Assembly (NCBI GenBank): GCA_002493865.1
Contig: DLAC01000010.1
Location: 31,017 to 95,016, forward strand
DNA: 64,000 nucleotides
Direction of reading: 5' to 3'
From: Bacillales bacterium UBA7057
Lineage (GTDB): Bacteria > Bacillota_I > Bacilli_A > RF39 > UBA660
In this document: positions 18,802-52,184 of the stretch, in pieces
How the letters are laid out: every line of letters starts with the position of its first letter
Position numbering within the stretch: the stretch's first letter is position 1
Program-made: the position numbers and the translations under genes
The notes under the pieces: model-generated
What the model was told of the DNA's origin: nothing
Database searches by the model: none
Seen by the model: the letters and a program-made list of their open reading frames with translations, nothing else

Positions 18802-19347
18802 ATGGCAAAATCAAGAGAAATTGTTACAAAAGCAGTCGTTGGGAAGGGAAAGAAAACATTTGTGACGACAGATGTAATTACCCCAGAAATTATGCCTACA
18901 ACTATCCTTGGTGCTTGGATTATCAATCATAACTTTTCTGGAAGAAAGAATGGAGATAAGGTAGCAATTACCGGTAGTTACGATGTCAATATCTGGTATT
19001 CTTGTATGAACGATAGCAAAACAGAGGTTGTAAAGAAAAGTGTTCAATATAATGAAAATGTTACAGTTCCAAAGAAAAATGAAGCTTCACTTTCTGATGA
19101 AGAAGTGGTTATCCGTAGTTTGAAACAGCCAACTTGTACGCGTGCTGAGATTATTGACGGGAAAATAGAATTTACAGTAGAAAAAGAGTTAGGAATCGAA
19201 TTAGTTGGAGATACAAAAGTAAAAATTAGTTATGAAGAAGAAGAGGATCCATGGGAAGATATCGAGGATGATCAAACAGAAATAGAATTAGAACAGGCGG
19301 AACAGCAAATAGATAATGAAATCCAAGAAGAATTTCTAGATGAATAA
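18802..19347 (+). CDS. cotE: spore coat protein CotE (Bacillus type)
   Basis: 181 aa. REIVTKAVVGKGKK...ILGAWIINH...acidic C-terminus aligns closely with B. subtilis CotE, and the synteny with miaB-ymcA supports the call. Confidence 0.8.
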   Translation: MAKSREIVTKAVVGKGKKTFVTTDVITPEIMPTTILGAWIINHNFSGRKNGDKVAITGSYDVNIWYSCMNDSKTEVVKKSVQYNENVTVPKKNEASLSDEEVVIRSLKQPTCTRAEIIDGKIEFTVEKELGIELVGDTKVKISYEEEEDPWEDIEDDQTEIELEQAEQQIDNEIQEEFLDE

Positions 19348-19427
19348 AGTATCGTTATGGTACTTTATTTTTTTGTATTCTATTGGTTTTAGTGTTAAAA
19401 TAAGTACATAGTAGGTGAGGTGTAAAA

Positions 19428-20276
19428 ATGAGTCGTAAAACAGAAAAAAATATAAAGATTGCTATTGTAATATTAATAATAATATTAATAGGATTTTTAG
19501 TTTTTATTTTAGTAGATAGCTTCTTATCAGAAAATAACAAAGAAAAAGATAAACCAATATTCTCAAATAATCCTATTTCATCACCAATGCAAAATCAGGA
19601 AGCAAACGAACCAGAAGAGCAGGAAATTGAAATCTCTATGGAGTTGGCGGAGAAACTTTATAATATGCTTTATGAACCAATGGATTGTGGAAGTAGATTA
19701 TTCTCTCATTATGGTAGTGACAAGATAGTTCCAAATGATTTTAGTAACTTAGAAAAAAATTTTATTGTAGTTATGAATCTAAATAAAGAAAGGGTTCTAC
19801 ATCAGAATCCAAAATATACAAAAGAGGAAATTATTGAAACAAAGAATCGTATTTTTGGTAAAGAAGCCACGTTCGAAATTATAAATAGCAATAGTTGTTA
19901 TCACTTTCATTTGGGAGAGGATGGAAATTACACCGTCGAATGGCAATGCGGTGGAGATATGTGTAGTCCATTAACTCTTACAAAACTTTCAAAGGCTGTA
20001 CAGAAAGGGAATAAAATATATATAGACCAAATGGTAATTTTTAGTTTGACAGGTGAATCTGGTGAAAGTGATGAGAATACAGCTTATTATTACCAAGACT
20101 ATAATAGAACAAAGCTGCTTGGAAAAAAAGAATTTATAGATTCATATGATTATATGATTAATTCTGATAAACTCGATTGGAATCAATATGAAAATCAAGC
20201 AAGTATTTATCAATATACTTATCAAGATAATAATGATGGAACTTATACATTTATTCAAATAGAAAAAATTAAATAA
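19428..20276 (+). CDS. membrane-anchored (N-terminal TM) Cys-containing extracytoplasmic protein, cassette copy 1
   Basis: 282 aa with an N-terminal TM helix (IKIAIVILIIILIGFLVFILV). The extracellular part has five conserved Cys. Paralogous to 22615..23472. Confidence 0.6.
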   Translation: MSRKTEKNIKIAIVILIIILIGFLVFILVDSFLSENNKEKDKPIFSNNPISSPMQNQEANEPEEQEIEISMELAEKLYNMLYEPMDCGSRLFSHYGSDKIVPNDFSNLEKNFIVVMNLNKERVLHQNPKYTKEEIIETKNRIFGKEATFEIINSNSCYHFHLGEDGNYTVEWQCGGDMCSPLTLTKLSKAVQKGNKIYIDQMVIFSLTGESGESDENTAYYYQDYNRTKLLGKKEFIDSYDYMINSDKLDWNQYENQASIYQYTYQDNNDGTYTFIQIEKIK

Positions 20277-20372: not shown

Positions 20373-22514
20373 ATGGAATTTTTTACGTTTCCTATGGAAA
20401 CTATGAGAATTATAGCTAATTACAATGATAATAGTGCACATTTTACTGGTGATCCTAAGGATTATCCAATTGCCAATGCTGGGGCTGATAATTCACGATC
20501 AGCTATATTTGCACGAGTTGATTTGAGAGTTGTCGCAAAAAGAGGGGTTGGAAATACTGTTACAAATACGGTATGGTTACAGACTGTTAATCCAGTTAAG
20601 ACACCAACTTTTGAAGATTATGCATTTATAACACTTACTCATTGGAACGATAGCGACAATCTTATGAAAAAATGGGAAGTAGGATTAATAATCCCAAAAG
20701 GAGAACTTATTTGCGGTGAAGGAACTGATGGTGTAACTGAAAATCAAATTCAAATAGCTTGTGGTAAAGGTTATTCAGATAATTGGACACAAAATACATC
20801 AGGTGCTTGGGTTATGACTGGAGATGCTAGAAAACCTGAAGAAGTATTTTATGTAGATCCTTCATTTACAACTATAGTGGATTCAAGAGGACTTGCTTTT
20901 CAATCATTACCTACTTTTTATGGTACACCTTTAGGAAGAAATACAAAGTTAAGGCAAGTTAACGTTACTACTAATGTACAAGAGGCATATTCAAATGCAT
21001 CTGGAAACATGATTGGTATGGTAAATCCTGGAGTTTATAATCTTTTACAAGTAAGTGGTGAATATGCTCAAATTGAATCTGGTCTTTGGGTAAAATTAGT
21101 AAGTGGAAGAGTTGTTATTTTAGAGGCAGAAACTGCCCCAAGTACATTAGGCTCTATTAATAATACTTCAATTGGTAGTAATGTAAATATTACCATTAAT
21201 AAGCAAATGGAAAATGTTGAGCATACATTAAGGTATGAATTTGGTTCAACTAATGCAACAATTGCTACCAGTGTAGATTCAAGTTATCAATTCAATTTAT
21301 CAAAAGATTTATATTATCATATGATAAATTCTAAATCTGCTAGCATGACTATATATTGTGATACTTATTCTAATGGAAATTTAATTGGAACTACTTCTAC
21401 TGTATTTATAGTATCTGCAGTTGATGATGATGTAAAACCAGATGTATCAATTGCCACCTCTGTTGATTCTAAAACAATGGAATTAACAAATGATGAAAAT
21501 ACGATTATTGCTGGAGTTACAGATCTTACATATCAAATAACTGCAGAGCCAAAATATGATGCAAGTATTAATTCTTATCAATTAGAAGATGCTACTGGCA
21601 TTAAAAGTGTATCTGCAAATGGAACTTTAGAAAAAGTAAATTTAACAGATGCACTAAAGTATCGTGTAATTGATAGTAGAGGATATAATGATTGGTATTT
21701 AAAAGATTTTGATATTGTTTCTTATACAGGAATTGGATTGATCTTTAGTGCAAATAGGTCAAATAAAAATAATATGGAAGAAGTAACAATTAATTATTCT
21801 GGTACTTTTGATAACAAAGTTTTTGGTACAAAGGAAGGGGCTTTAACTAACCAGTTAAGTGTTGCATTATATTCTAGAACATCAGATACAGAAGAGTGGG
21901 AAAAGGTATTAGATTTAACACCGACTGTTTTAGAAAACAATTACTATCAAGAAATGATTTTACCTATGGGATTTAATAAAAATACAACTTACTATTTCAA
22001 AATAGTTGTAAATGATTTATTAACAAAAGCGGAAGTTGAATATGAAGTTAAAGATGAGCAAAGTCTAAATTTTGAATTTATATATCCGATTGGACGTGGG
22101 TTCTTAGATTTTACGAATACAGATTATAGTAATTATCTTGGATTTACTTGGGAAAAAACATTATTAGGAGTATTTCCAGTAGGATTCGATGGTACTCAAG
22201 CAGAATTTAATGTTATAGGTAAAAAAGGAGGAAGCAAATTTTTACAAGCTCATAGCCATACTTTTTCAGGAACTACTAGTCAAAATGGTAACCATTATCA
22301 TACAACGATGGGGGTAGAGGCATCAAGTAAGACTAATCCGTCTAAAACAGTTTTAAGACCTGCTGGATGGGACGGTCAGACAAGTGTTGTTTCTGGTAAT
22401 GCTGCGGGTGACCATGCACATACTTATAGTGGTACTACTAGCACTGCTGGTAATGGTAATGCACAGAATTTACCACCATATGAAGTCGTTAATTTCTGGA
22501 AAAGAATTGCATAG
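20373..22514 (+). CDS. phage tail-fibre-like protein with C-terminal tail-collar (MdpB-like) domain, cassette copy 1
   Basis: 713 aa with no signal peptide. C-terminus FLQAHSHTFSGTT...GDHAHTYSGTT...NLPPYEVVNFWKRIA fits the phage tail-collar fibre domain. The N-terminus is conserved with 23759..25922. Confidence 0.7.
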   Translation: MEFFTFPMETMRIIANYNDNSAHFTGDPKDYPIANAGADNSRSAIFARVDLRVVAKRGVGNTVTNTVWLQTVNPVKTPTFEDYAFITLTHWNDSDNLMKKWEVGLIIPKGELICGEGTDGVTENQIQIACGKGYSDNWTQNTSGAWVMTGDARKPEEVFYVDPSFTTIVDSRGLAFQSLPTFYGTPLGRNTKLRQVNVTTNVQEAYSNASGNMIGMVNPGVYNLLQVSGEYAQIESGLWVKLVSGRVVILEAETAPSTLGSINNTSIGSNVNITINKQMENVEHTLRYEFGSTNATIATSVDSSYQFNLSKDLYYHMINSKSASMTIYCDTYSNGNLIGTTSTVFIVSAVDDDVKPDVSIATSVDSKTMELTNDENTIIAGVTDLTYQITAEPKYDASINSYQLEDATGIKSVSANGTLEKVNLTDALKYRVIDSRGYNDWYLKDFDIVSYTGIGLIFSANRSNKNNMEEVTINYSGTFDNKVFGTKEGALTNQLSVALYSRTSDTEEWEKVLDLTPTVLENNYYQEMILPMGFNKNTTYYFKIVVNDLLTKAEVEYEVKDEQSLNFEFIYPIGRGFLDFTNTDYSNYLGFTWEKTLLGVFPVGFDGTQAEFNVIGKKGGSKFLQAHSHTFSGTTSQNGNHYHTTMGVEASSKTNPSKTVLRPAGWDGQTSVVSGNAAGDHAHTYSGTTSTAGNGNAQNLPPYEVVNFWKRIA

Positions 22515-23758: not shown

Positions 23759-25922
23759 ATGGAATTTTTTACGTTTCCCATGGAGTCTTTAAATGTTTCG
23801 CAAAGATATGATGGAGATGGACATATAGGTCATATAAAAGGAAATCCCAAAGATTATCCAATAGATATAGTTGGTGGTGATTATGGAGTACCGAATGCCG
23901 TTTTTGCAACAGTAGATCTAAGGGTTGTGAAAAAAAAGAGGACCATATGATAATACAGTAACAAATACTGTATGGTTACAAACTGTTAACCCTGTTAGAA
24001 CACCAACTTTTGAAGATTATGCATTTATGACACTAACACATTGGAATGATGGAGATACTGCAATGAAAAAGTGGCCAGAGGGATCTATTATTCCAAAAGG
24101 ACAAATTATATGTTATGAAGGAACTAATGTAAATGTTGCCTTACATATTCATATGACCTGTGGAAGAGGCTATTCCAGCGGATGGACAAAAAGTACTACT
24201 GGAAAACAGGTTATAACGGGAGATTGTAAGCCACCAGAGGATGTATTATATATAAATCCTTCATTCACTAAGATAGGAACAAGGTATGGAAAAAATGGTC
24301 TTAATTGGAGAAATATTCCATCTTCTTATGGAACCCCAGTTTCAAGGAACAATACAATTCGTCAAGTTAATGTAATTGCTACAATGCAAGATGCTTATTC
24401 TTCAGCTGGTGGATCCTCAATTGGATTGGTTAATCCAGGGATTTATAATCTTTTACAAGTGAGTGGAGAATATGTTCAAATTGAATCTGGTCTTTGGGTA
24501 AAATTAGTAAGTGGAAAAGTTGTTATCTTAGAAGCTGAAGTAGTACCAAGTACATTAAATTCTATTAATGATACTTCTGTTGGTAACAGTATAAATATTG
24601 TTATTAATAAAAAAACATCAAATGTTTATCACACATTGAGATATATTTTTAATTCTACCAATGCGACTATTGCTACTAATGTAGATTCAAGCTACCAATT
24701 TGAACTATCACAAGATTTATATTATCATATGACAAACTCTAAGTTTGCTAATATGACTATATATTGTGATACTTATTTTAATGGAAGTTTAATTGGAACT
24801 ACTTCTACTACATTTAAAGTATTTGCTGTTGATAGCGATGTAAAGCCAGAGGTATCAATTACTACTTCTGTTGATTCTAAAACAATGGAATTAACAAATG
24901 ATGAAAGCACTATTATTGTCGGAGTTACAGATCTTACATATCAGATAACTGCACAGGCAAAATATGATGCCGGTATTAATAGCTATCAATTGGAAGATGC
25001 TACTGGTATGAAAAGTGTATCTGTAAATGGAATTTTAGAAAAAGTAAATTTAACAGATACACTAAAATATCGTGTAATTGATAGTAGAGGATATGACAAT
25101 TGGTATTCAAAAGGCTTTAACATTGTTTCATATACACCAGTTGCATTATCGTATCGTGCAGTTCGAGAAAATGAAACTAATTTGGAAGAGGTAACAATTA
25201 ATTATTCTGGCGTTTTTGATAACAAAGCGTTTGGCTCAAAAGAAGGTGCCTTGACTAACGAATTAGAGCTAGAGTTATATTATCGTAACGCAGGGGAAAA
25301 TAATTGGATAAAGATTTCATCTTTAAATCCTACCATAGTAGGAAATAAGTATGAAGGAAAACTTTTATTACCTATTACTTTTGATAAAAATACAATTTAT
25401 TACTTTAAAATTAATGCAAAGGATTTGCTTACTGAAGTAGAAGTTGAAAAAGTATTACTGGACCAAAAGGGTCAATTTTTTGATTTTCTATTCCCAGTAG
25501 GAAGTGGATTTATAGATTTTACAGACATTAATTATACAAATTATCTCGGTTTTACTTGGGAAAAAACTTTATTAGGAAAAACGCCAGTTGGGTGTGATAT
25601 TAGTCAATCAGAATTTAATACTTTAGGCAAAATAGGTGGATCAAAAGGTTTGCTTGCGCATAGCCATAGTTTTTCTGGAGGTACTGACCAAAATGGTAAT
25701 CATACTCATACAACGATGGGGGTAGAGGCATCAAGTTTAACGAATCCTTCAAAAACAGTTTTAAGGCCTGCTGGATGGGATGGGCAAACAAGTGTTGTTG
25801 AAGGTAATGCTACTGGTAATCACATGCATAGTTACAGTGGAACTACTAGTACTTCAGGTGTTGGTAATGGACAAAATTTACCTCCATATGAAGTAGTTAA
25901 CTTTTGGAAGAGAATTGCTTAG
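23759..25922 (+). pseudogene. tail-fibre-like protein, cassette copy 2, disrupted by a +1 frameshift in an A8 tract
   Basis: ORFs 23759..23950 and 24027..25922 are the N-terminus and the body of a paralog of 20373..22514. Removing one A from A8 (23930-23937) restores ...VVKKRGPYDNTVTNTVWLQTVNPVRTPTFEDYAFMTLTHWND..., colinear with copy 1. Confidence 0.65.
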
Positions 25923-31640: not shown

Positions 31641-31715
31641 TTACAGGTATCGTTTGCTTGATTGTAAAAAGGATTTTTTCGTGATATACTGAAATAAAAT
31701 TAAGGGTGAATGTGT

Positions 31716-32618
31716 ATGAAATGTAAGAAGTGCAAGATGGAAATTGATGATCAATCTATTTTTTGTTCTTATTGTGGAGAACGAGTGAAGTCAGAAGATT
31801 CTTATCTAGATCCATTCGAAAAATATAGAATTCCAGATTCTCATGAGACACAGTATTCCTATCAGCAGTCCTATAGTCAGGGAGAAAGCAGTAAAAAAAC
31901 AGAGGATTTACAAATCGTTAAGACTTCTAGTATTTTGCCTTTACAGTCTTATACAGTGGTAGGAATCATTTTATCCATTCTTTCGATTGTTGTTTGCTTT
32001 CTTCATGCTGGATTTGGATTTACTTTTCTAGTACTTGCTTTTTTCTTTATTATTCGGGGATTTCGTTATGTAGAAAAGAAAAAGCGGATTGCATCTATTA
32101 TAACACTTATTGTTTCTACCCTTGCAGTCTTTATCATATCGATTGTTCTTTGGATTTTTTCATTGACAATTACTTTAGCAAATGGAATGGAATATACAGT
32201 GAAAGAGTACTTATTTAGTTCATTTTTTAATTCCTATTATTCGGATCGCGTCTATGGAATGTGGATAGATGAATCTGGGGAGGTACTTGATTTAACAGGG
32301 GGCTTTTATTATACATTCTACGATTCTAATGGAGATACTTTATATGAAGGAGCTTATTCTAAAATCAATGGTTACCGAGTAGGAGTCGACGATTATGTTT
32401 ATTCAGATCGAGATTTTTATTTCTTTGAGTTTATGGAAGAAAGGAAAGAGTTAACAGAAGATGATCCTTTGGTTTTATGTTTAGATAAAAAAGACTTTAC
32501 GAGAATGGTTTTATATTTTCCTAAAAGAAACTTTTCTGTAGAAACTAAAAAAATAGATGCTCTTCCATATAAAAATGAAAAGAAACATGAGGAAATGGAT
32601 CCGGGAATGATCGGATAA
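31716..32618 (+). CDS. zinc-ribbon membrane protein, function unknown
   Basis: N-terminal CxxC...CxxC (CKKCKMEIDDQSIFCSYCG), two TM helices and a Y/D-rich C-terminal domain. Confidence 0.5.
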   Translation: MKCKKCKMEIDDQSIFCSYCGERVKSEDSYLDPFEKYRIPDSHETQYSYQQSYSQGESSKKTEDLQIVKTSSILPLQSYTVVGIILSILSIVVCFLHAGFGFTFLVLAFFFIIRGFRYVEKKKRIASIITLIVSTLAVFIISIVLWIFSLTITLANGMEYTVKEYLFSSFFNSYYSDRVYGMWIDESGEVLDLTGGFYYTFYDSNGDTLYEGAYSKINGYRVGVDDYVYSDRDFYFFEFMEERKELTEDDPLVLCLDKKDFTRMVLYFPKRNFSVETKKIDALPYKNEKKHEEMDPGMIG

Positions 32619-32645
32619 ATAAAAAACAGGGGATGAGGATTCTAC

Positions 32646-33584
32646 ATGAAATACTGGTGGCTTGAAAAATATCAAAATTTAGAGATGAAGATGTTACCAT
32701 CTTTGTTTTTGGATGTTCAATATTTTTTAGTAGTACCAAAAAACTATGTAGAAGTTTATCAGAAATTAAAGGATGTTGATATTGAATTATTGACAGAAGC
32801 AGAACTTTGCATTTTACTATATTGGATTTCCGTTACCAAGACAGTAAAAAATAATTTGTTAGGTAAAATCATCGAAAGACTTTTGTTAGTACCAGATACT
32901 TCCTTGCCAATTAGTGATTATAGCCTGTTAGAAGTGATTGAGGAAATTCGTAGTTTAAAAAACAGAAGGGCTATGATTGGCCAAATGGGTTGTAATAATA
33001 TTGCAGCCTGTGATTCTTGTTTAAATGTTTTTTATGTGGATCAAATTAAAGCAACTAACTCGAAAGGTCAGTGTCTTTGCCCTTTCTGCCTCAAAAACAG
33101 ATTATACTTTGATAACGAATATATTCCTATGAATTATAGTTTTCTTTTTCATAGTAGACTTTTTTATAGTACTTCTAATCTAGGATGCAATTACCAAAAA
33201 TTAAAGAAATTACTAAAAAAGAACGTAAAAATTTTAGACGATGATTCTACTATAAATTTAAAAGAATTCATACTAGATTTAGAATTTAGTCAATATTTGA
33301 AAGGCCTGCAAATGAAAAAAATTACTGCCTTGGATGAATCTAAAATAATCAAAGGATTTTATGATTACTTTTTAAAAATAGAAGAATGTGGAAGTTATGA
33401 GGCAACACTTATTCTTCCTTGGAAAAATGATTGTAATTTATTTCAAATCTCTTATTTACTGATTCTTTCTTGTGCCTTTGTTTTAGAAAATTTCTTTTAT
33501 TTAAAAGAAATTCACTTAGTAATAGAAAACAGGGAACTAAGGACTCAGTTAAAAAAAGTATTAAAAACTTGTATAGAAAAGTAA
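32646..33584 (+). CDS. Cys-rich hypothetical protein
   Basis: 312 aa with a cluster CNNIAACDSCLN...CLCPFCL. No signal peptide. Confidence 0.45.
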   Translation: MKYWWLEKYQNLEMKMLPSLFLDVQYFLVVPKNYVEVYQKLKDVDIELLTEAELCILLYWISVTKTVKNNLLGKIIERLLLVPDTSLPISDYSLLEVIEEIRSLKNRRAMIGQMGCNNIAACDSCLNVFYVDQIKATNSKGQCLCPFCLKNRLYFDNEYIPMNYSFLFHSRLFYSTSNLGCNYQKLKKLLKKNVKILDDDSTINLKEFILDLEFSQYLKGLQMKKITALDESKIIKGFYDYFLKIEECGSYEATLILPWKNDCNLFQISYLLILSCAFVLENFFYLKEIHLVIENRELRTQLKKVLKTCIEK

Positions 33585-33685
33585 ACAAGAATAAATCACT
33601 TGACATGTTTATGTAAAATAATTTTGTATATTTTTTAATTTTATGATATTCTTTAACTATATAAATAATATTAGGAGGGTATGGA

Positions 33686-34969
33686 ATGGATCAGAAGTTA
33701 TTAGACATAGAAGGGCTAGTATCTGGTAGTTCTAGTATTAATCAAGAATCATCAAATTTAACTGAAGTTTGTGCTTCTTTGTATTCACTTGTTACAAGTT
33801 TAAGAGAAAATGAAGATTTTAAAACGATGATTGCCAGTTCTGAGTACTTTGGTTCTATTGATATATTGAATCAACAAGTTCCAAGATATGCAGAGGCATT
33901 ATTAGAATTTTCAAAGTTTTTATCGAATTATGTATTAGAAAATTATTCAGATACAGATGCAGAAATGAAAGCAAAAGTCGAAGCAAATTTAGCAGAAGCA
34001 ATTGCGAAACTTGGAGAAACTGAGGAGACTGTTGGAACCGGCGTAGACTATAGCAAAATTTCTACTACCGCAGCAGGAGCCTTATCCGGAGACTTTATTG
34101 ATAGCTCAAAAATTCAAAAGTCAACGTTTGAGGATGGAGAGTTAGAATTTATTACTCGTCCAGATGGAAGTGTTCAGATTGTTAAGAATGGGTCAGTGTT
34201 AGGATACACGACACAAGATGGAATTGGAAATGCACAGACAACGACGAGTGCAACGACAGGTAAAGAAACAGAAGAATTGCATACTTCTATATCGTCAGGG
34301 GAAATTGCTGGTACTGTTGCATCTATGGCAACAGTAGGTACAGGAGCTGTAGCAGGTAGTACTACTACTGGTGATGCTACTGCTTCTGCTGATATGATTG
34401 CCTCTGCGGATGCTACCATTCCTACAGATACTACCGCGATAGATCCAGGATTCAGTGGTACTACTGCTATGACTGCTCAAAATCCTACTCCCGGTACAAG
34501 GCTAATGGATGTACCAGACGTAAACAGTGAGTTTAAAGCATATATGGATTATAGAACTATTACTTCCAAAGATTCTAAACAATATGCAATGCAACATAGT
34601 GAAAATTGTTTTACAGATGAGTCTGGATTCCGAAAGATTCGTGATGAGAATGGTGAGGAATATTATATGGGTGCCTTGGGTAGTTATTATACCGAAGGTG
34701 AAGTTGGAAAAAAGTATCAAATTACACTTGATACTGGTGAAACATTTAAGTTTGTTGCTGGAGATCAAAAAGCAGATATTCATACCAATTCTACCAATCA
34801 ATATCGTGATACGGGAACAACAACCAATGTGGTTGAGTTTATTGTAGATGATAATCAAATCCCGTCAGATTGTAAAAGGGCTGGTAGTATGAGTGGAGCC
34901 TATGGTGGGCAATTTGGAGGAAACGTTGTTAAAATTGAAATGCTAGACGATGGAAAACCTATTATGTAG
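33686..34969 (+). CDS. T7SS polymorphic effector paralog 1: LXG-like N-terminal module plus unknown C-terminal domain
   Basis: N-terminal ~190 aa are shared with 35446.. and 37040.. (SSSINQESSNLTEVC...NEDFKTMIASS.YFGSID...VPRY.EALL.FS.FLSNYVLENYSDTD.EMKAKVEANL; DYSKIST.AAGALSG.F.DSSKI.KSTFE.GELEFITRPDGSVQIV). A Thr/Ala-rich linker follows, then a unique ~170-aa C-terminal domain (YMDYRTITSKD...). Confidence 0.6.
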   Translation: MDQKLLDIEGLVSGSSSINQESSNLTEVCASLYSLVTSLRENEDFKTMIASSEYFGSIDILNQQVPRYAEALLEFSKFLSNYVLENYSDTDAEMKAKVEANLAEAIAKLGETEETVGTGVDYSKISTTAAGALSGDFIDSSKIQKSTFEDGELEFITRPDGSVQIVKNGSVLGYTTQDGIGNAQTTTSATTGKETEELHTSISSGEIAGTVASMATVGTGAVAGSTTTGDATASADMIASADATIPTDTTAIDPGFSGTTAMTAQNPTPGTRLMDVPDVNSEFKAYMDYRTITSKDSKQYAMQHSENCFTDESGFRKIRDENGEEYYMGALGSYYTEGEVGKKYQITLDTGETFKFVAGDQKADIHTNSTNQYRDTGTTTNVVEFIVDDNQIPSDCKRAGSMSGAYGGQFGGNVVKIEMLDDGKPIM

Positions 34970-35025
34970 GAACTTTCTATATATATATTATTTTTAGATT
35001 ATAAAGGATAAGGAGCGTGAACGAT

Positions 35026-35337
35026 ATGCCAAATGGTTCAAATGATTTTAGTTTAAATTATGAAAATATTAGTGAAGTAATTACTCAAGTTACTCAAGGA
35101 AAGGACAAAATTGCTGAGATTGTAGATAAGCTTAGTGGGATTGTTGCTAATTTGGAAACTGCATGGGAAGGTACTGATGAGGCCTCATATGTAGAGAAAA
35201 TAAATAGCTATAAACCTCATATTTTAAAATTGCAAAAAGCCTATGAAGATGCAGCGATTGCACTACAGAATATGAGCAATCAATATCAAGAAAAGCAGGC
35301 GGAAAATACATTAAAGGTTCAGAGTGAGTTGTATTAA
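35026..35337 (+). CDS. WXG100-family small helical protein
   Basis: ~104 aa with a central W-x-G (ETAWEGTDEASY). ATG 35026 is preferred (RBS AAGGAG 10 nt upstream). Confidence 0.55.
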   Translation: MPNGSNDFSLNYENISEVITQVTQGKDKIAEIVDKLSGIVANLETAWEGTDEASYVEKINSYKPHILKLQKAYEDAAIALQNMSNQYQEKQAENTLKVQSELY

Positions 35338-35445
35338 GACGAATCTGTACTAAAATTTAGTTGATTGTTGCTTTACAGTCGACTTTTTCGTTTTATAAGA
35401 ATTATGTTATTTTGACAGATAAAAGTCATATTAGGAGGTTACGAA

Positions 35446-36696
35446 ATGAATGAAAAAAAGTTAAGTATAGAAGAACTTGTATCTAGTAGTTCTAGTATTA
35501 ATCAAGAATCATCCAATTTAACAGAGGTTTGTTCTTCTTTGTATTCACTTGCTATGAGTCTAAGAGAAAATGAAGATTTTAAAACGATGATTGCAAGTTC
35601 TCAATATTTTGGTTCGATTGATAGTCTCAATCGGGAAGTTCCAAGATATTCGGAAGCATTATTGCAGTTTTCAAGATTTTTATCTAATTATGTATTAGAA
35701 AATTATTCAGATACAGATGAAGAAATGAAAGCAAAGGTCGAGGCCAATTTAGAAGAAGCTATTTCTAAACTAGGAGAATATGGAATCGACTACAGTAAAA
35801 TTTCTACTTCTGCTGCCGGTGCTTTATCAGGAAACTTTGTTGATAGTTCAAAAATTCGAAAGTCAACGTTTGAAGAGGGAGAACTGGAATTTATTACTCG
35901 CCCAGATGGAAGTGTTCAGATTGTTAAGGATGGAACTGTGTTAGGATATACGACACAAGATGGAATCGGGAATGCACAATCAACGATGGGTGCAAATACA
36001 GCTACAGGAACAGAAGAAGTACATACATCTATGTCAAAGGAAGAAATCGCAGGTACTGCTATGGCAGCAGCTACAAGTGCAGGAATTGCAGCTAGTGGTA
36101 CTACTTCAGTAGGTGAAACAACAGTTACAGAAGAAGTTCCTGAAACATCAGCTCCAACTTTATCTACAGGTCAAGTTCCTTCTGGCCTTTCTTCTGGATA
36201 TTTTGGAGAGGTTCATACAAAAGGTCAAGCGAGTGCTAATATTAAAGAATCTTCTGGAAATATAACAACAGGGAATCAATCCTATACAATCGTTCCAGAC
36301 AGTGAATATACAAAGGCACCAGGTACAATTTCAGAAAGTGATTATCATTTATTAATTGCACAAGTTGCTGGAGAAGCTGGAGCTTCGGTAGAACCTAAAA
36401 ATTATAAAGATGATATGTTAGGAGTAACAACGACTGTATTAAATCGTCTTGAAACAGAAGGAAAATATGGAGATTCTGTAAGAGAAGTTCTTGAAGGTGG
36501 ATATTTCCCATTTGGAGAAACGTATAGGGCATATGAGCCGGGAGGTAAATACTATAATACTGACTGGGGACAAGATAAATTAAGACAAGCAACGGAGGTT
36601 GTTAATGATGCCTTAGGTGGGGCAAGAAATCTAGAAAGTAATGTATATTATTATTCTGGAAACGGTGAGTATAATAGATTCTCAGATGTATTATAA
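35446..36696 (+). CDS. T7SS polymorphic effector paralog 2: LXG-like N-terminal module plus SleB-like cell-wall hydrolase domain
   Basis: Shared N-terminal module. C-terminus LLIAQVAGEAGASVEP...GVTTTVLNRLETEGKYGDSVREVLEGGYFPF matches the Hydrolase_2/SleB cell-wall hydrolase fold (AxAxGE...VxNR...FP). Confidence 0.65.
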   Translation: MNEKKLSIEELVSSSSSINQESSNLTEVCSSLYSLAMSLRENEDFKTMIASSQYFGSIDSLNREVPRYSEALLQFSRFLSNYVLENYSDTDEEMKAKVEANLEEAISKLGEYGIDYSKISTSAAGALSGNFVDSSKIRKSTFEEGELEFITRPDGSVQIVKDGTVLGYTTQDGIGNAQSTMGANTATGTEEVHTSMSKEEIAGTAMAAATSAGIAASGTTSVGETTVTEEVPETSAPTLSTGQVPSGLSSGYFGEVHTKGQASANIKESSGNITTGNQSYTIVPDSEYTKAPGTISESDYHLLIAQVAGEAGASVEPKNYKDDMLGVTTTVLNRLETEGKYGDSVREVLEGGYFPFGETYRAYEPGGKYYNTDWGQDKLRQATEVVNDALGGARNLESNVYYYSGNGEYNRFSDVL

Positions 36697-36719
36697 AATG
36701 AAAATAGGAGTGTAGAATA

Positions 36720-37025
36720 ATGGATTATAGTTTTTTACCAGAAGAGATGGAAAATGCATGTGTAGAGATTGAAAATGGGGTAGAAGAAATTCGTTTGCAA
36801 TTAGAAAAAATTGTGAATGTAGCAAACACGATTAGCGATTCTCCGAATGATTGGAAAGGTAAAGATGCAACTAAATATATTGAAAATATGTTAACTTTTG
36901 AAGGCGATATGTTAGATTTAAACAGTGCTTATTTATCAGCTGTCAATACTTTGAGAGGGACAGCGGAAGTTGCGAATAATCGAGCAATTGAAACTACAAA
37001 TCAAGTCAATCGAGAATTGTTTTAA
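36720..37025 (+). CDS. WXG100-family small helical protein
   Basis: 101 aa with W-x-G at NDWKGKDATKY. Its MDYSF N-terminus is shared with the 46252..46557 (-) protein. Confidence 0.55.
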   Translation: MDYSFLPEEMENACVEIENGVEEIRLQLEKIVNVANTISDSPNDWKGKDATKYIENMLTFEGDMLDLNSAYLSAVNTLRGTAEVANNRAIETTNQVNRELF

Positions 37026-37039
37026 GGAGAATAGAGAAA

Positions 37040-38377
37040 ATGGATGGAGAAAAAATAAAATTAAGTGAAGCGGAAATCTTAGCACATAGTGAGACCTTAA
37101 ATACAGCTGCTCAAAATATCAATGATACATGTAAAAAACTCTACAGTATCATTACAAATTTGCAAGAAAGTGAAGCATTTAAGTCTAAAGAAGCCGCTAT
37201 GAATTATTATCTGCGCATTCAAGAAATAAATGCTGTCGTACCAAAGTTTATAGAGGGAATATTAAAGTTTTCTCAATTCTTATCTGGCTATTTATTAGAA
37301 AATTATAGAGAAACAGACGAAATGGCTAAGCAAATTCAGGAGTCATTTGACGAGTCTGTCAATCAATTAGCTGCCATTGGACTGATTGGGGGAGTAGTTA
37401 ATATAGGAAAAATTTCTTCTACTGCACAAGGCGCTTTAAATGGAAATTTTATTAGTAGTGATCAAATATATAAAGAGGCATTTGAGGATACTGGTAACTT
37501 GGAATTTGTGACTCGTGATGATGGTGCGATTATGATTACTAGAGATGGGGTTCCAATTGGATTTACCACAAAGGATGGTATTTCTAATCCTATGTCATCA
37601 AAAGTATCTAAACCATCTGGGATGGGAAATGATCCAAGATATCAACAATTGAGCCCATCTGGAATGGGAGATGACCCAAGATATAAAAATATAAGACCAG
37701 AAACTCCATTAACAGAGGGAATGGGAAATAATGAGGCAATTATTAAAGCACGTGAAAATGGTCGTTTACCAAATCCAACAGATAAGAATGGAATCGGTGA
37801 TGACTCAAAACACGAAGATGCCTACTCTAATCAATATCCATCTGCCATGAAAGGCGATCCAAGATATATTGGGGACGACTCAAGGCATGAAGATACGTAT
37901 TCTAGTCAATCATCTTTAGGGCCCGTTCAAAAAAATTCATCTACGCTTGATCAAGGCTTTAATTTTTCAACTACCAATTCTAGTGGAAAATCAAATTCAA
38001 CAAATGCACAATCTCCATCAATTTTCAAAAGTGGTGTAGAGGCACAAAAAAATTCGTCTTCCCTTGATCAAGGATTTATTGTTTCAACCACCAGTTCTAA
38101 TGAAAAAACAAGTTTAGCAAGTCTACATTCATCATCAGGATTAGAAAGTTTGAGTTCATCTAAAACGGGACAAGCTCAAACGACTTCATCTGCCCCTTTA
38201 CGAGAAGTTACTATCCCATCATTAAATGCTAATGAAAAGGCGGATTTAGCTAATGTACATTTTTCAACAGGAGCAGAAATTTTGAATTCTTTAGATTCGG
38301 GGCAGACTCAAACTAATTCTCCTACGATTGGGATTGCTTCTTCAGGAATAAATACGAATGATGGAGTAGATTCCTAA
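37040..38377 (+). CDS. T7SS polymorphic effector paralog 3: LXG-like N-terminal module plus S/T/N-rich repetitive C-terminal region
   Basis: N-terminal module homologous to paralogs 1 and 2. C-terminal ~260 aa are low-complexity with internal repeats (GMGNDPRY x3, GDDS(K/R)HEDxYS x2, KNSS(T/S)LDQGF x2). Confidence 0.55.
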   Translation: MDGEKIKLSEAEILAHSETLNTAAQNINDTCKKLYSIITNLQESEAFKSKEAAMNYYLRIQEINAVVPKFIEGILKFSQFLSGYLLENYRETDEMAKQIQESFDESVNQLAAIGLIGGVVNIGKISSTAQGALNGNFISSDQIYKEAFEDTGNLEFVTRDDGAIMITRDGVPIGFTTKDGISNPMSSKVSKPSGMGNDPRYQQLSPSGMGDDPRYKNIRPETPLTEGMGNNEAIIKARENGRLPNPTDKNGIGDDSKHEDAYSNQYPSAMKGDPRYIGDDSRHEDTYSSQSSLGPVQKNSSTLDQGFNFSTTNSSGKSNSTNAQSPSIFKSGVEAQKNSSSLDQGFIVSTTSSNEKTSLASLHSSSGLESLSSSKTGQAQTTSSAPLREVTIPSLNANEKADLANVHFSTGAEILNSLDSGQTQTNSPTIGIASSGINTNDGVDS

Positions 38378-38466
38378 AGTTAAGAATAGTTGAACTTATA
38401 TTTTGCTTTTAGGTTTATGCTTTTTTGAATAGTTTTTTCTGTCATATGACTTAATTTTATTGTATT

Positions 38467-38496
38467 AAAAGTAACACAAATAATGTTACTTTTTGT
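38467..38496 (+). terminator. rho-independent terminator
   Basis: AAAAGTAACA-caaataa-TGTTACTTTT followed by TGTTTG. Separates the effector genes from essC. Confidence 0.65.
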
Positions 38497-38529
38497 TTGC
38501 TAAATTCTTTAAAAACTTATTGGAAAATT

Positions 38530-38557
38530 CTTTACTTATGATATAATAATTATATAT
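38530..38557 (+). promoter_or_regulatory. candidate sigma-A promoter for essC (TTGGAA-16-TATAAT)
   Basis: TTGGAA at 38530-38535, 16-nt spacer, TATAAT at 38552-38557, ~20 nt upstream of the essC RBS. Confidence 0.4.
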
Positions 38558-38577
38558 ATAATAATGGGAGTTGGACT

Positions 38578-49150: not shown

Positions 49151-49795
49151 GTGAATGATATGGATGAATATAAATCAGTAGAGAAGTATTTGAATAAGCA
49201 AAAAAAGAAGCAAGTAAACAATGGATCTAAACGGATAGAAAATCCTGTTCGTTCTATGATTCTTGGTTTTATCAATCGCACTTTAATTTCAGGAATTTTT
49301 TTATTAAGTGTACTCTGCATGATTAAAATGAATCCAGATACAAAGAAACAAGTGTATCAAACTGTTTATGGGAGTAACTTTTCTTTTGCCTCCTTTCAGA
49401 AATGGTATCAAAAAAATTTCGGAAATCTATTTCCTAAAGAAATCACTAAAAAGATAGGGAATGATCAAATGGTATTTCAAGAGTCATTCGTTTATCAAAA
49501 AAAGGAAAATATTGAAAATGGTGTCCGTGTTTCTGTTGGTCAAGGATATTTAATGCCTGCCTTAGAAAGTGGTCTCGTTGTTTTTATGGGAGAAAAAGAG
49601 GGAGTTGGAGAAACGTTAATTATTCAACAAGTCAATGGTGTTGATGCATGGTATGTAGGACTTACTCCCAAAGATTTAAAACTTTATGATTATGTGGAAA
49701 AGGGAAGTCTTTTAGGGGAAGCACGTGAGAAAACATTGGATTTATATTTTCAAAAAGAAGGAGCATTTGTAGATTATCAAGACTATATTTCATAG
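49151..49795 (+). CDS. spoIVFA: stage IV sporulation protein FA-like (degenerate LytM/M23 domain)
   Basis: TM-anchored. C-terminal VVFMGEKEGVGETLIIQQVNGVDAWYVGL is M23-like without catalytic His residues. Sits between mreD and spoIVFB as in B. subtilis. Confidence 0.6.
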   Translation: MNDMDEYKSVEKYLNKQKKKQVNNGSKRIENPVRSMILGFINRTLISGIFLLSVLCMIKMNPDTKKQVYQTVYGSNFSFASFQKWYQKNFGNLFPKEITKKIGNDQMVFQESFVYQKKENIENGVRVSVGQGYLMPALESGLVVFMGEKEGVGETLIIQQVNGVDAWYVGLTPKDLKLYDYVEKGSLLGEAREKTLDLYFQKEGAFVDYQDYIS

Positions 49796-49829
49796 GATTT
49801 CTCTACATCCGTTATTTTATGTTTTTTTA

Positions 49830-50531
49830 ATGCTTTCTGCTCTCAGTGGAAATTTTAGAAAGATGGTATTATTCACTTCTTTAATTTTAGTACATGAATT
49901 AGGACATTTTTTAACTGCTTGTTTTTTTCATTGGAAAGTTGATAAAATTGTCCTTTATCCTTATGGTGGATGTAGTTATTTTGAAGTAGATGTCAATACT
50001 TCGATTTTAGAAGAATTTTTCGTGTTGATTATGGGTCCCATTTTTCAAATTATATTTACTTGTATTCTATTTTTCTTTTTAAGAGAAAGTGATGCTTCTT
50101 TTTTACTTCTTGTTAGTCAGTTATTATTATTTTTTAACTTTCTTCCCATTTATCCACTCGATGGTGGAAAACTATTTTTATTAATAATGAGTTTTTTCTT
50201 TTCTTATTATCAATCGTTAAAAATTACCTTTTATAGTAGTTTTTTCTTTTATTTTCTTCTTTTATTTATTGCTTTTTTATTTTATCAGTCTTTATTTTGG
50301 TTGCTTTTACTATTTACTTTATTTTTCCGTCTTTGGAAGGAACAGAAGAATGGAAATTATCTATATCAAAAGTTTTTATTGGAGAGATATTTGAATTCTT
50401 ACTCTTTTAGAAAGAAAAAAATAGTTACTTCGGTTTTTTCTATGAAGAAAGGATACTATCATTTATTTTTGGAGAATGGAGAATGTGTGAGGGAAGAGGA
50501 ATATTTAAAAAAATATTTTCTTCTTACCTAG
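49830..50531 (+). CDS. spoIVFB: SpoIVFB-type M50 site-2 protease
   Basis: HELGHFLTA (HExxH) and polytopic membrane topology. Paired with spoIVFA. Confidence 0.7.
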   Translation: MLSALSGNFRKMVLFTSLILVHELGHFLTACFFHWKVDKIVLYPYGGCSYFEVDVNTSILEEFFVLIMGPIFQIIFTCILFFFLRESDASFLLLVSQLLLFFNFLPIYPLDGGKLFLLIMSFFFSYYQSLKITFYSSFFFYFLLLFIAFLFYQSLFWLLLLFTLFFRLWKEQKNGNYLYQKFLLERYLNSYSFRKKKIVTSVFSMKKGYYHLFLENGECVREEEYLKKYFLLT

Positions 50532-51407: not shown

Positions 51408-52184
51408 ATGGCACGCCACAAAGTTGAAATCAGTGGTGTGAATACAGCGAATATGAAAGTTTTAAGTAGTGAGGAAACAGAAGCTTTATTTTTAAAAATG
51501 AAGGAAGGGGATCGGGATGCCAGAGATGCTTTAATTGAAGGAAATCTGAAATTGGTACTTAGTATTTTAAAAAGGTTTCATCATAGGGACGAAAATATGG
51601 ATGACTTATTTCAAGTCGGCAGTTTTGGATTAATTAAAGCCATTGATAATTTTGACTTAAGTCATGGAGTGAAACTTTCTACCTATGCAGTTCCCATGAT
51701 TCTTGGTGAAATAAAAAGATATTTGCGAGATAATAACAGTATACGAGTCAGTCGTTCGATTAAGGATCTTGCCTATAATGTCATGAAAGAAAAAGAAAAA
51801 ATCACTTTAGAAAAGGGAAGAGAAGCAACCATTGATGAGATTTCAGAGGTTCTTCATGAAGATCCAATTGATATAGTAGTTGCTTTAGATTCTATGAGAA
51901 GTCCTGTGAGTATTTTTGAGCCTATTTATAGTGATGGTGGAGATACGATTTATTTATGTGATCAAATTGAAGACCAAAGGCTACGTAAAAAGGACATTGA
52001 TATTAATATTGCGCTAGATGATGCGATTCAAGATTTGGAGGCTAGAGAAAAATATATCATTGATCAAAGATATATCATTGGGAAAACACAAATGGAAATT
52101 GCGAATGAATTAGGTATTAGCCAGGCACAAATTTCAAGATTAGAAAAAAATGCTATCAAAACGTTAAAAAAGGTGCTAAGATAA
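51408..52184 (+). CDS. sigG: sporulation sigma factor SigG
   Basis: Near-colinear with B. subtilis SigG (KVEISGVNT..., DLFQVGSFGLIKAIDNFDLSHGVKLSTYAVPMILGEIKRYLRDNNSIRVSRS, GISQAQISRLEK). Followed by a ylmC-like gene. Confidence 0.8.
   Translation: MARHKVEISGVNTANMKVLSSEETEALFLKMKEGDRDARDALIEGNLKLVLSILKRFHHRDENMDDLFQVGSFGLIKAIDNFDLSHGVKLSTYAVPMILGEIKRYLRDNNSIRVSRSIKDLAYNVMKEKEKITLEKGREATIDEISEVLHEDPIDIVVALDSMRSPVSIFEPIYSDGGDTIYLCDQIEDQRLRKKDIDINIALDDAIQDLEAREKYIIDQRYIIGKTQMEIANELGISQAQISRLEKNAIKTLKKVLR

Follow-up and report, generated by a model that had tools for sequence, protein, structure and literature searches.

How does the cargo of a type VII secretion system (T7SS) get through the thick cell wall of a Gram-positive bacterium? 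The passage of large T7SS substrates across this wall, be it that of the producer or that of the prey, is a stated open question (PMC13492133; PMC10765036). EssH is needed for secretion by the type VIIb system (T7SSb) across the wall of Staphylococcus aureus (PMC10765036; PMC13059805), and the way in which T7SSb cargo crosses the wall elsewhere is an open question (PMC13492133). Here, we analyzed a stretch of 64,000 nucleotides (nt; hereafter, the window) from Bacillales bacterium UBA7057, an uncultured gut bacterium of the Bacilli; in the window, a protein of 416 amino acids (aa) is encoded in a T7SS locus. We identify the C-terminus of this protein as a diverged peptidoglycan lytic domain of the SleB/CwlJ type (Hydrolase_2), while its N-terminal module (N-module) is a putative Esx-like T7SS export handle. 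Modular cargo of T7SSs and lytic enzymes of the SleB family are both known; the pairing of a T7SS-type handle with a SleB-type domain is a new variant, and we tentatively suggest that such an enzyme may open the wall for T7SS cargo.

Several lines of evidence support the identity of the C-terminal domain. The Pfam model of the family (PF07486, Hydrolase_2; curated gathering cut-off, 27 bits) spans residues 322 to 406, numbered here and throughout as in the open reading frame (ORF) at positions 35446 to 36696. It matches the C-terminal domain alone with E = 1e-5 and 26.5 bits, marginally under the cut-off, and the whole protein with E = 9.4e-5 and 23.4 bits, likewise under the cut-off. A search for the C-terminal module among 1.84 billion representative proteins returned 41 clusters, three of which are repeat-protein artefacts; the subfamily is thus small, with ∼38 genuine clusters, and in all genuine matches the matched part is C-terminal. 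We aligned 38 family members (alignment A2) and used this alignment as the basis of a profile, a hidden Markov model (HMM) and an AlphaFold2 model. Taken individually, 27 of the 38 members match PF07486 at E ≤ 0.01 (best, E = 1.2e-8), and the close homologues P0002 and P0004 exceed the cut-off in full-length scans (28.1 and 28.5 bits). Against the PDB, the 38-member profile matches only structures of the SleB catalytic domain (4f55, E = 7.1e-6; 4fet, E = 2.6e-5; next match, E = 0.15), and this alignment is collinear across four conserved blocks, among them those with the "GE" glutamate and the "LNR" helix. SleB was reached with the family profile only: phmmer with the single 416-aa sequence gave no relevant match in the PDB, and word-indexed homologue searches gave a single fragment for the C-terminus and nothing for the N-module. 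Within A2, N333, G392 and F412 are invariant, E310, E336 and R394 are among the positions shared by ≥90% of the members, and Glu310 and the LNR motif are almost without variation in the family.

The original prediction had described this domain as ∼125 aa long. The corresponding interval, 36313 to 36696 on the plus strand, is in the correct frame and is the C-terminal end of the intact ORF, translating into 127 aa and the stop codon. The conserved module, however, comprises ∼160 aa and begins ∼35 residues before this interval, near residue 255 (position 36208), with the lead-in "HTK.qAS...NQ.Y.ivpD".

The structure model points in the same direction. The AlphaFold2 model of the C-terminal module built on A2 has a predicted local distance difference test score (pLDDT) of 93.9 and a predicted template modeling score of 0.90. 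In a Foldseek search of the PDB with this model, three SleB chains come out on top, with probabilities of 0.96, 0.93 and 0.82 and template modeling (TM) scores of 0.44 to 0.53, while all others have probabilities of ≤0.08. Among viral models, the named leading matches are nearly all annotated as "Cell Wall Hydrolase/SleB" (probability, ∼1.0; TM score, 0.5 to 0.59). As modeled, the C-terminal domain has a SleB-like three-dimensional fold, and SleB and CwlJ (PF07486; 4f55 and 4fet), the sole solved relatives, share with it this predicted fold as well as the four collinear blocks. Because the structural similarity is moderate, we regard the domain as a member of a distinct subfamily and not as a SleB ortholog. 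It has only ∼20% identity to SleB/CwlJ, and it differs from them in additional, conserved lead-in strands and in the subfamily-specific, invariant Glu of an "NRxE" motif.

SleB is a lytic transglycosylase that acts on peptidoglycan in dependence on muramic delta-lactam. It has one essential catalytic Glu, and the equivalent Glu is essential in a type VI secretion system (T6SS) effector with a SleB fold (PMC11148199). The PF07486 model begins downstream of the catalytic Glu and is therefore uninformative on this residue, and E310 was examined separately. In the HMMER profile alignment, E310, which lies in "QVAGE", falls on the Glu of the "VYGE" sequence in the two crystal structures, i.e., on chain position 26 of 4f55 and on chain position 120 of 4fet. 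Provided that the two constructs start as assumed, these chain offsets agree with the residues that we take to be catalytic in SleB, i.e., E157 in Bacillus cereus and E151 in Bacillus anthracis. The second Glu of the SleB sequence "GESRGE" is not conserved in the 38-member family. Judged by this alignment, the catalytic glutamate appears to be retained as E310, and the domain may possess lytic transglycosylase activity. The original prediction had claimed a match to the Hydrolase_2/SleB fold, had proposed the Pfam search as a check, and had named a lack of HMM or structural similarity and the loss of catalytic residues as signs to the contrary. Its claim has held up, in that Pfam gives a near-threshold match, the profile and the fold both lead to SleB, and E310 is kept.

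The domain is carried by a protein with a modular layout (Table 1). The ORF is preceded by an AGGAGG ribosome-binding site 8 nt 5' of the ATG, in a window that is AT-rich (31% GC). The highest hydropathy of the protein over 19 residues (Kyte-Doolittle) is 1.07, so that signal peptide and membrane helix are both absent. A full-length ortholog is encoded in a related locus (L001; the other loci that we compared are numbered likewise) from an uncultured Bacilli metagenome-assembled genome (MAG). The two proteins are 70% identical overall, with 74% identity in the N-module, 73% in the beta-rich segment, 44% in the linker and 81% in the C-terminal module. Thus, the enzyme domain is the most constrained part of the protein.

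Table 1. Features of the 416-aa protein and of the T7SS locus in which it is encoded (positions in the window)
Feature	Position	Strand	Basis or remarks
Complete ORF of paralog 2 (416 aa + stop)	35446..36696	+	ORF list; N-module, beta-rich segment, linker, SleB-like domain
N-terminal module, predicted helical (residues 1-112)	35446..35781	+	Common to three paralogs; also a stand-alone 117-aa protein in the locus
YxxxD motif (Y87-S-D-T-D91) at the end of the predicted helical module	35704..35718	+	Alignment of six N-modules; codons checked
Beta-rich segment (residues 113-180), KISTSAAGALSG...GELEFITRPDGSVQIVKDGTVLGYTTQDGI	35782..35985	+	Invariant alignment columns; strands from low-confidence model
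Low-complexity T/A/G/S/E-rich linker (residues 181-254)	35986..36207	+	Composition; low ortholog identity
Conserved C-terminal module (residues 255-416), lead-in strands and SleB/CwlJ-type (Hydrolase_2) domain	36208..36693	+	Profile, structure, conservation
Codon GAA of Glu310 (QVAGE), putative catalytic glutamate	36373..36375	+	Family alignment and HMMER against SleB structures; codon checked
WXG100 gene (106 aa)	35017..35337	+	PF06013, E = 3.6e-9, 37.2 bits, above cut-off; TIGR03930, E = 2.8e-10
WXG100-like gene (101 aa), 23 nt downstream of paralog 2	36720..37025	+	PF06013, E = 0.0019; TIGR03930, E = 1.8e-4
Paralog 1 (427 aa)	33686..34969	+	First 185 aa as in paralog 2; C-terminal domain of other, unannotated family
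Paralog 3 (445 aa)	37040..38377	+	Shared N-module; repetitive S/T/N-rich C-terminus
EssC-type T7SS ATPase (1538 aa), FHA and FtsK/SpoIIIE domains	38578..43194	+	PF01580, E = 6e-45, two matched stretches; FHA, E = 1.8e-6
Pair of WXG100 gene and stand-alone 117-aa N-module gene	WXG100, 46252-46557; N-module, 45884-46237	-	Divergently oriented; stand-alone copy against N-modules of the paralogs, BLASTP E = 4e-14

YxxxD/E is a T7SS export motif. All six N-modules in our alignment have Y87, T90 and D91, and the stand-alone copy of the N-module carries YQQAD at this position. By contrast, neither Pfam nor NCBIfam gave a significant match of the N-module to LXG (PF04740) or WXG100: no LXG match was obtained even at E ≤ 1 to 10, the best Pfam match to WXG100 has E = 0.094 and concerns one of the six modules, and the match of paralog 3 to TIGR03930 has E = 0.58. 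The N-module profile had no match in the PDB, and hhalign gave a probability of 0.9% against the local WXG100 proteins. With all four approaches negative, we rejected the N-module as an LXG or WXG100 domain. A single-sequence AlphaFold model of the whole protein was unusable (pLDDT, 36.8), and both the helical (hairpin) prediction for the N-module and the strands of the beta-rich segment stem from this low-confidence model (pLDDT, ∼37). The beta-rich segment has a faint Ig-like similarity to PDB entry 2kpn (E = 0.054) and may serve as a common element for association with the wall or for targeting. By eye, its GELEFITRPDGSVQIVKDGTVLGYTTQDGI part resembles a motif in the unrelated "IRKIEKSEIDF..." N-termini of homologues outside T7SSs (P0004 and P0010-P0017).

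What supports export, then, is the stand-alone N-module in an Esx-like pair, the invariant YxxxD motif, the flanking WXG100 genes, the nearby EssC gene and the fact that neither signal peptide nor transmembrane helix is present. In addition, other members of the hydrolase subfamily have WXG100-like N-termini (P0002 and P0006) or are encoded close to EssC-like genes (L002 and L009). From this gene context, we reasonably infer that the 416-aa protein is exported by the T7SS. The "T7SS targeting module" of the original prediction is in agreement with the WXG100/EssC context and with a handle shared by paralogs; the name claims a function that the missing LXG and WXG100 matches leave unestablished.

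The gene is the second of three tandem paralogs that share their first ∼185 residues and diverge afterwards, as the designation "paralog 2" in the original prediction implied. The DNA of paralogs 1 and 2 has 81% identity across the first ∼640 nt and the ∼27 nt upstream of them, beyond which the similarity ends; alignment of the paralogs likewise bears out the SleB-like domain as the variable end of a modular family. The array is interleaved with WXG100 genes and lies immediately 5' of the EssC gene, which is 1.9 kb downstream of the ORF, and further WXG100-like genes follow beyond EssC. The WXG100 protein encoded upstream of paralog 2 is its likely heterodimer partner. The WXG100-like gene downstream takes the slot where an immunity gene would be expected, and no immunity-like gene adjoins paralog 2, as had been predicted. 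The divergently oriented pair at 45884 to 46557 has the classic layout of an Esx pair, and the same pair is present in locus L010 at 19189 to 19864. Altogether, there are three pairings of WXG100 and N-module in the window, and the pairing is found again in L001, L005 and L010. All small genes of the locus that match a family are WXG100-like, and the unmatched ones have, by eye, neither a signal peptide nor a membrane anchor. EssB, EsaA and EssA are not recognizable in the window.

Some further features of the locus (31710-46557) deserve mention. A 91-aa gene without a Pfam match occupies the position of YukD/EsaB, and a gene for a conserved 312-aa protein with Cys-rich CxxC-type motifs (32646-33584 in the window) always precedes the array (window, L001 and L010). 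The tail of paralog 3 in the window is repetitive and S/T/N/Q-rich, with repeats like SGMG[ND]DPRY and QKNSS.LDQGF. In L001 (12004-13158) and L010 (8723-9769), the orthologs of paralog 3 share a different, short C-terminal domain ("IPFPEN...SVEDL"). The C-terminus of paralog 1 (34448-34966, ∼170 aa) belongs to an unannotated family of proteins of 160 to 290 aa, mostly with a hydrophobic N-terminus suggesting secretion, and with the motifs FKxYMDYRxIT..SxQY, ALGSYY, DxKADxHT and VVEFxVD. It was rejected as a known wall hydrolase: its profile has no match in the PDB or Pfam, except for SH3_3, a cell-wall-binding domain, in two relatives. Perhaps this C-terminus, too, acts on the wall, and its fold may be DPBB/3D-like. 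On either side, the locus is embedded in the chromosome, with cdsA- and rseP-like genes upstream and radC and mreC downstream. At 20373 to 22514 and 24027 to 25922, the window also encodes two large paralogs with DUF859, a domain of siphovirus proteins, and a Gp10_C baseplate C-terminal domain; their surroundings are otherwise chromosomal, and no prophage is obvious nearby.

Members of the hydrolase subfamily differ in their N-termini and in their genomic neighborhoods. Other N-termini include Pfam-detectable WXG100-like modules (P0002 and P0006), LysM domains (P0003, P0018 and P0020 by Pfam, others by eye) and, in P0004 and others, the unrelated N-terminus beginning with "IRKIEKSEIDF". The two relatives that carry organism labels are from uncultured Bacilli and Firmicutes MAGs. 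In L001, an ortholog of the WXG100 gene at 35017 to 35337 in the window adjoins the hydrolase gene; in L005, an ortholog of the same gene is immediately upstream of homologue P0008. The order in L002 is EssC, a small gene, four helical small genes and the hydrolase gene, and in L009 the hydrolase gene is 1.3 kb from an FtsK/SpoIIIE gene. Around the hydrolase genes of L003, L006 and L008, no T7SS genes are within view. On the 351-kb contig of L008, tandem LysM-LysM-SleB-like genes (P0020 and P0018; 6238-9098) without signal peptides lie downstream of a gene for a 1655-aa protein without a Pfam domain, forming a second, non-T7SS context of the subfamily.

We also surveyed 80 metagenomic loci encoding relatives of EssC (34 to 62% identity) by scanning all ORFs with purpose-built HMMs; >5 kb of upstream sequence is available for 36 of them. 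Only one locus, the closest one (L010; EssC, 62% identical), has a SleB-like domain, and the hydrolase was rejected as a core accessory shared by all related T7SS loci. The syntenic first gene of L010 (7208-8281) encodes a canonical WXG100 module, an A/T/S-rich linker and a divergent SleB-like domain, which keeps "HEAG" and "NRAE" (VVQHEAG...IMNRAE) and matches the A2 HMM with E = 1.6e-7; searched alone against the PDB, this domain has no match. It looks like a non-orthologous replacement of handle and enzyme in which the architecture was kept. Hence, the three nearest genomes (window, L001 and L010) have a SleB-type enzyme on a T7SS-type handle at the same position, and the wider clade is without. 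In none of the four loci with a readable downstream region (window, L001, L002/L004 and L009) is the hydrolase gene followed by an immunity-like gene; the downstream neighbors are genes for WXG100, a metallophosphatase or an enzyme that, by eye, is probably methyltransferase-like. As immunity candidates, the downstream genes of L002/L004 were rejected, their products resembling by eye an enzyme of the methyltransferase/spermidine-synthase type with a GGGG motif.

The layout of the 416-aa protein recalls several known systems. The LXG toxins of T7SSbs (TelA, TelB, TelC, EsaD, YobL and others) have in common with it a handle (predicted as helical in the 416-aa protein), a linker and a variable enzymatic domain at the C-terminus; they also have adjacent small helical WXG100-like partners and tandem paralogs with swapped C-termini near essC. 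However, the N-module is not matched by the LXG model, and a downstream immunity gene is missing. SleB itself has a peptidoglycan-binding domain at the N-terminus, instead of which the 416-aa protein has an Esx-like module and is encoded in a T7SS locus. Like the 416-aa protein, EssH of S. aureus is a peptidoglycan hydrolase that is encoded in a T7SS locus, is lineage restricted and has no immunity partner. In contrast, EssH is a CHAP amidase/peptidase with an N-terminal domain of its own, whereas the 416-aa protein has no CHAP domain and, going by its family, would cleave glycan strands; moreover, EssH works with EsaA, which is not recognizable in our locus. The resemblance to EssH is functional and positional only. 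In T6EC3, a SleB-like fold is likewise the C-terminal cargo of a secretion effector and the conserved Glu is essential for toxicity (PMC11148199); yet T6EC3 belongs to a Gram-negative T6SS, acts in the periplasm and has an adjacent immunity protein, T6IC3, whereas no immunity gene adjoins that of the 416-aa protein. We propose the specialized lytic transglycosylases of other secretion systems as functional analogues.

We favor a role in wall opening, to which we assign a probability of roughly 0.4. The N-module would pair with the WXG100 protein encoded next to it, and the T7SS to which the EssC ATPase encoded 1.9 kb downstream belongs would export the complex. Once across the membrane, the C-terminal domain, which a disordered linker would separate from the beta-rich part, would cut the glycan strands of peptidoglycan. 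Local cleavage of the thick Gram-positive wall, in the producer and possibly in a touching neighbor, would let T7SS cargo pass. Such self-directed opening would not need an immunity protein, and the enzyme would act in an EssH-like manner rather than as a stand-alone killing toxin. Our results cover the identity of the domain, its catalytic residue, the modular paralogs, synteny and the lack of an immunity gene, from which we infer export, enzymatic activity and role. A physiological role in wall cleavage is favored by three findings: no immunity gene is present next to the hydrolase gene, the enzyme domain is strongly conserved, and the same type of activity has been retained. The structure of the array and the variable C-termini favor a polymorphic effector. 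As a whole, the pattern is at least as compatible with a physiological wall-remodeling enzyme as with a polymorphic toxin. Several points weigh against our interpretation. The array of three paralogs, with its 81%-identical 5' module and abrupt 3' divergence, has the look of a polymorphic toxin locus, and the set of C-termini differs between related genomes. Given its presence in one of 80 EssC loci, the enzyme is no general requirement of this T7SS clade. T7SS export stays unproven, given that no LXG or WXG100 model matches the N-module. EssH is Sec dependent and is not known to be a T7SS substrate. The similarity to SleB is moderate in structure (TM score, ∼0.5; Foldseek E = 0.17) and, in Pfam score, falls slightly short of the curated threshold, a marginal miss in which the signal is present. 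Finally, an immunity factor or a protective modification of peptidoglycan could be encoded outside the window.

The alternative put forward in the original prediction, an antibacterial T7SS effector that lyses or weakens neighboring Gram-positive cells, with its producer protected by immunity or wall modification encoded elsewhere, strikes us as possible but doubtful. Tandem paralogs that combine a conserved 5' handle with exchanged 3' domains and lie beside essC and WXG100 genes, C-termini that vary among related genomes and a SleB-like domain that occurs only sporadically among related T7SS loci (1 of 80) are what an effector would lead one to expect, and precedents exist: T6EC3, which has a SleB fold and depends on its catalytic Glu, has been validated as a toxic effector candidate of a T6SS (PMC11148199), and TelC is a T7SS cargo that acts on the wall from the outside by targeting lipid II (PMC10765036). 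TelC and T6EC3, however, both have adjacent immunity proteins, while no immunity-like neighbor was found in the four downstream-readable loci, and the small genes of our locus are WXG100-like where they match a family and otherwise devoid, by eye, of signal peptides and anchors. The enzyme domain is, moreover, better conserved than the handle, and the type of activity is kept rather than diversified in the three related genomes. The antibacterial role is weakened by these observations and not established, and we rate self-directed wall opening slightly above it. Another alternative is a protein that is not a T7SS substrate at all, its N-terminal 185 aa being a scaffold or wall-association module and its path to the wall following another route, e.g., lysis or a holin-like one, or a C-terminal domain that is catalytically inert and only binds peptidoglycan. 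The lack of a significant LXG or WXG100 match of the N-module, the absence of recognizable EssB, EsaA and EssA from the window and the homologues with other N-termini encoded away from T7SS genes (L003 and L008) are in line with this idea. We nevertheless consider it unlikely, given the threefold WXG100/N-module pairing that recurs in L001, L005 and L010, the conserved YxxxD motif, the near-invariant Glu and LNR motif and the strong conservation of the domain between orthologs.

Could the protein instead be a spore cortex-lytic enzyme, with the specificity of SleB/CwlJ for the cortex (muramic delta-lactam) and a function in germination of the host's own spores, the T7SS genes around it being a coincidence or a means of delivery? 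It is very probable that the host is from a sporulating lineage, consistent with the claim of the original prediction that it is a spore-former. The window encodes a sigma factor of the SigB/F/G family, which passes the SigBFG subfamily cut-off and has its best match to SigG (357 bits; cut-off, 372), and, after radC-mreC, M23 and M50 peptidases that are arranged like spoIVFA-spoIVFB. The intervals for the peptidase genes and the nearby SigF/SigG-like sigma factor are 49151 to 50531 and 51408 to 52184. Because a SigF/G-type sigma factor and a spoIVFA/spoIVFB-like pair make a sporulating lineage likely, the cortex-lytic interpretation stays alive. The closest solved relatives are germination enzymes, and many subfamily members are LysM fusions that have, by eye, no obvious signal peptide and are encoded outside T7SS loci. 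LysM fusions without a signal peptide are an architecture typical of spore proteins made in the mother cell, and, by analogy with CwlJ, which is likewise not known to have a Sec signal, the missing signal peptide of the 416-aa protein would point to its production in the mother cell. Against this stand the ∼20% identity to SleB, the lack of a SleB-type N-terminal peptidoglycan-binding domain, the position of the gene inside the WXG100/EssC array and the sharing of its N-module with two paralogs that are not SleB-like; Hydrolase_2 enzymes also act outside sporulation and on vegetative walls, e.g., phage hydrolases, T6EC3 and SleB of Zymomonas (bioRxiv 10.64898/2026.07.21.739787). A cortex-lytic function is, on balance, improbable. 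Even less probable, in our estimate, is that a cortex-specific domain is delivered by the T7SS to spores, causing premature cortex lysis in spores of competitors (in the gut) or loading the developing spores of the producer; if true, this would be the first link of type VII secretion to spore biology.

In the searchable literature, we found no paper connecting SleB/Hydrolase_2 domains with type VII secretion; papers that name both do not link them. EssH, a CHAP enzyme restricted to S. aureus, is the sole characterized helper in wall crossing. If the 416-aa protein were a toxin instead, it would represent a new enzymatic class of T7SS effectors, i.e., a lytic transglycosylase of the SleB type without a neighboring immunity gene. 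If our favored interpretation of wall opening is true, a glycan-cleaving enzyme on a T7SS-type handle would provide a second, mechanistically different answer to the question of how T7SS substrates cross the Gram-positive wall, in a locus seemingly without the wall-spanning EsaA.

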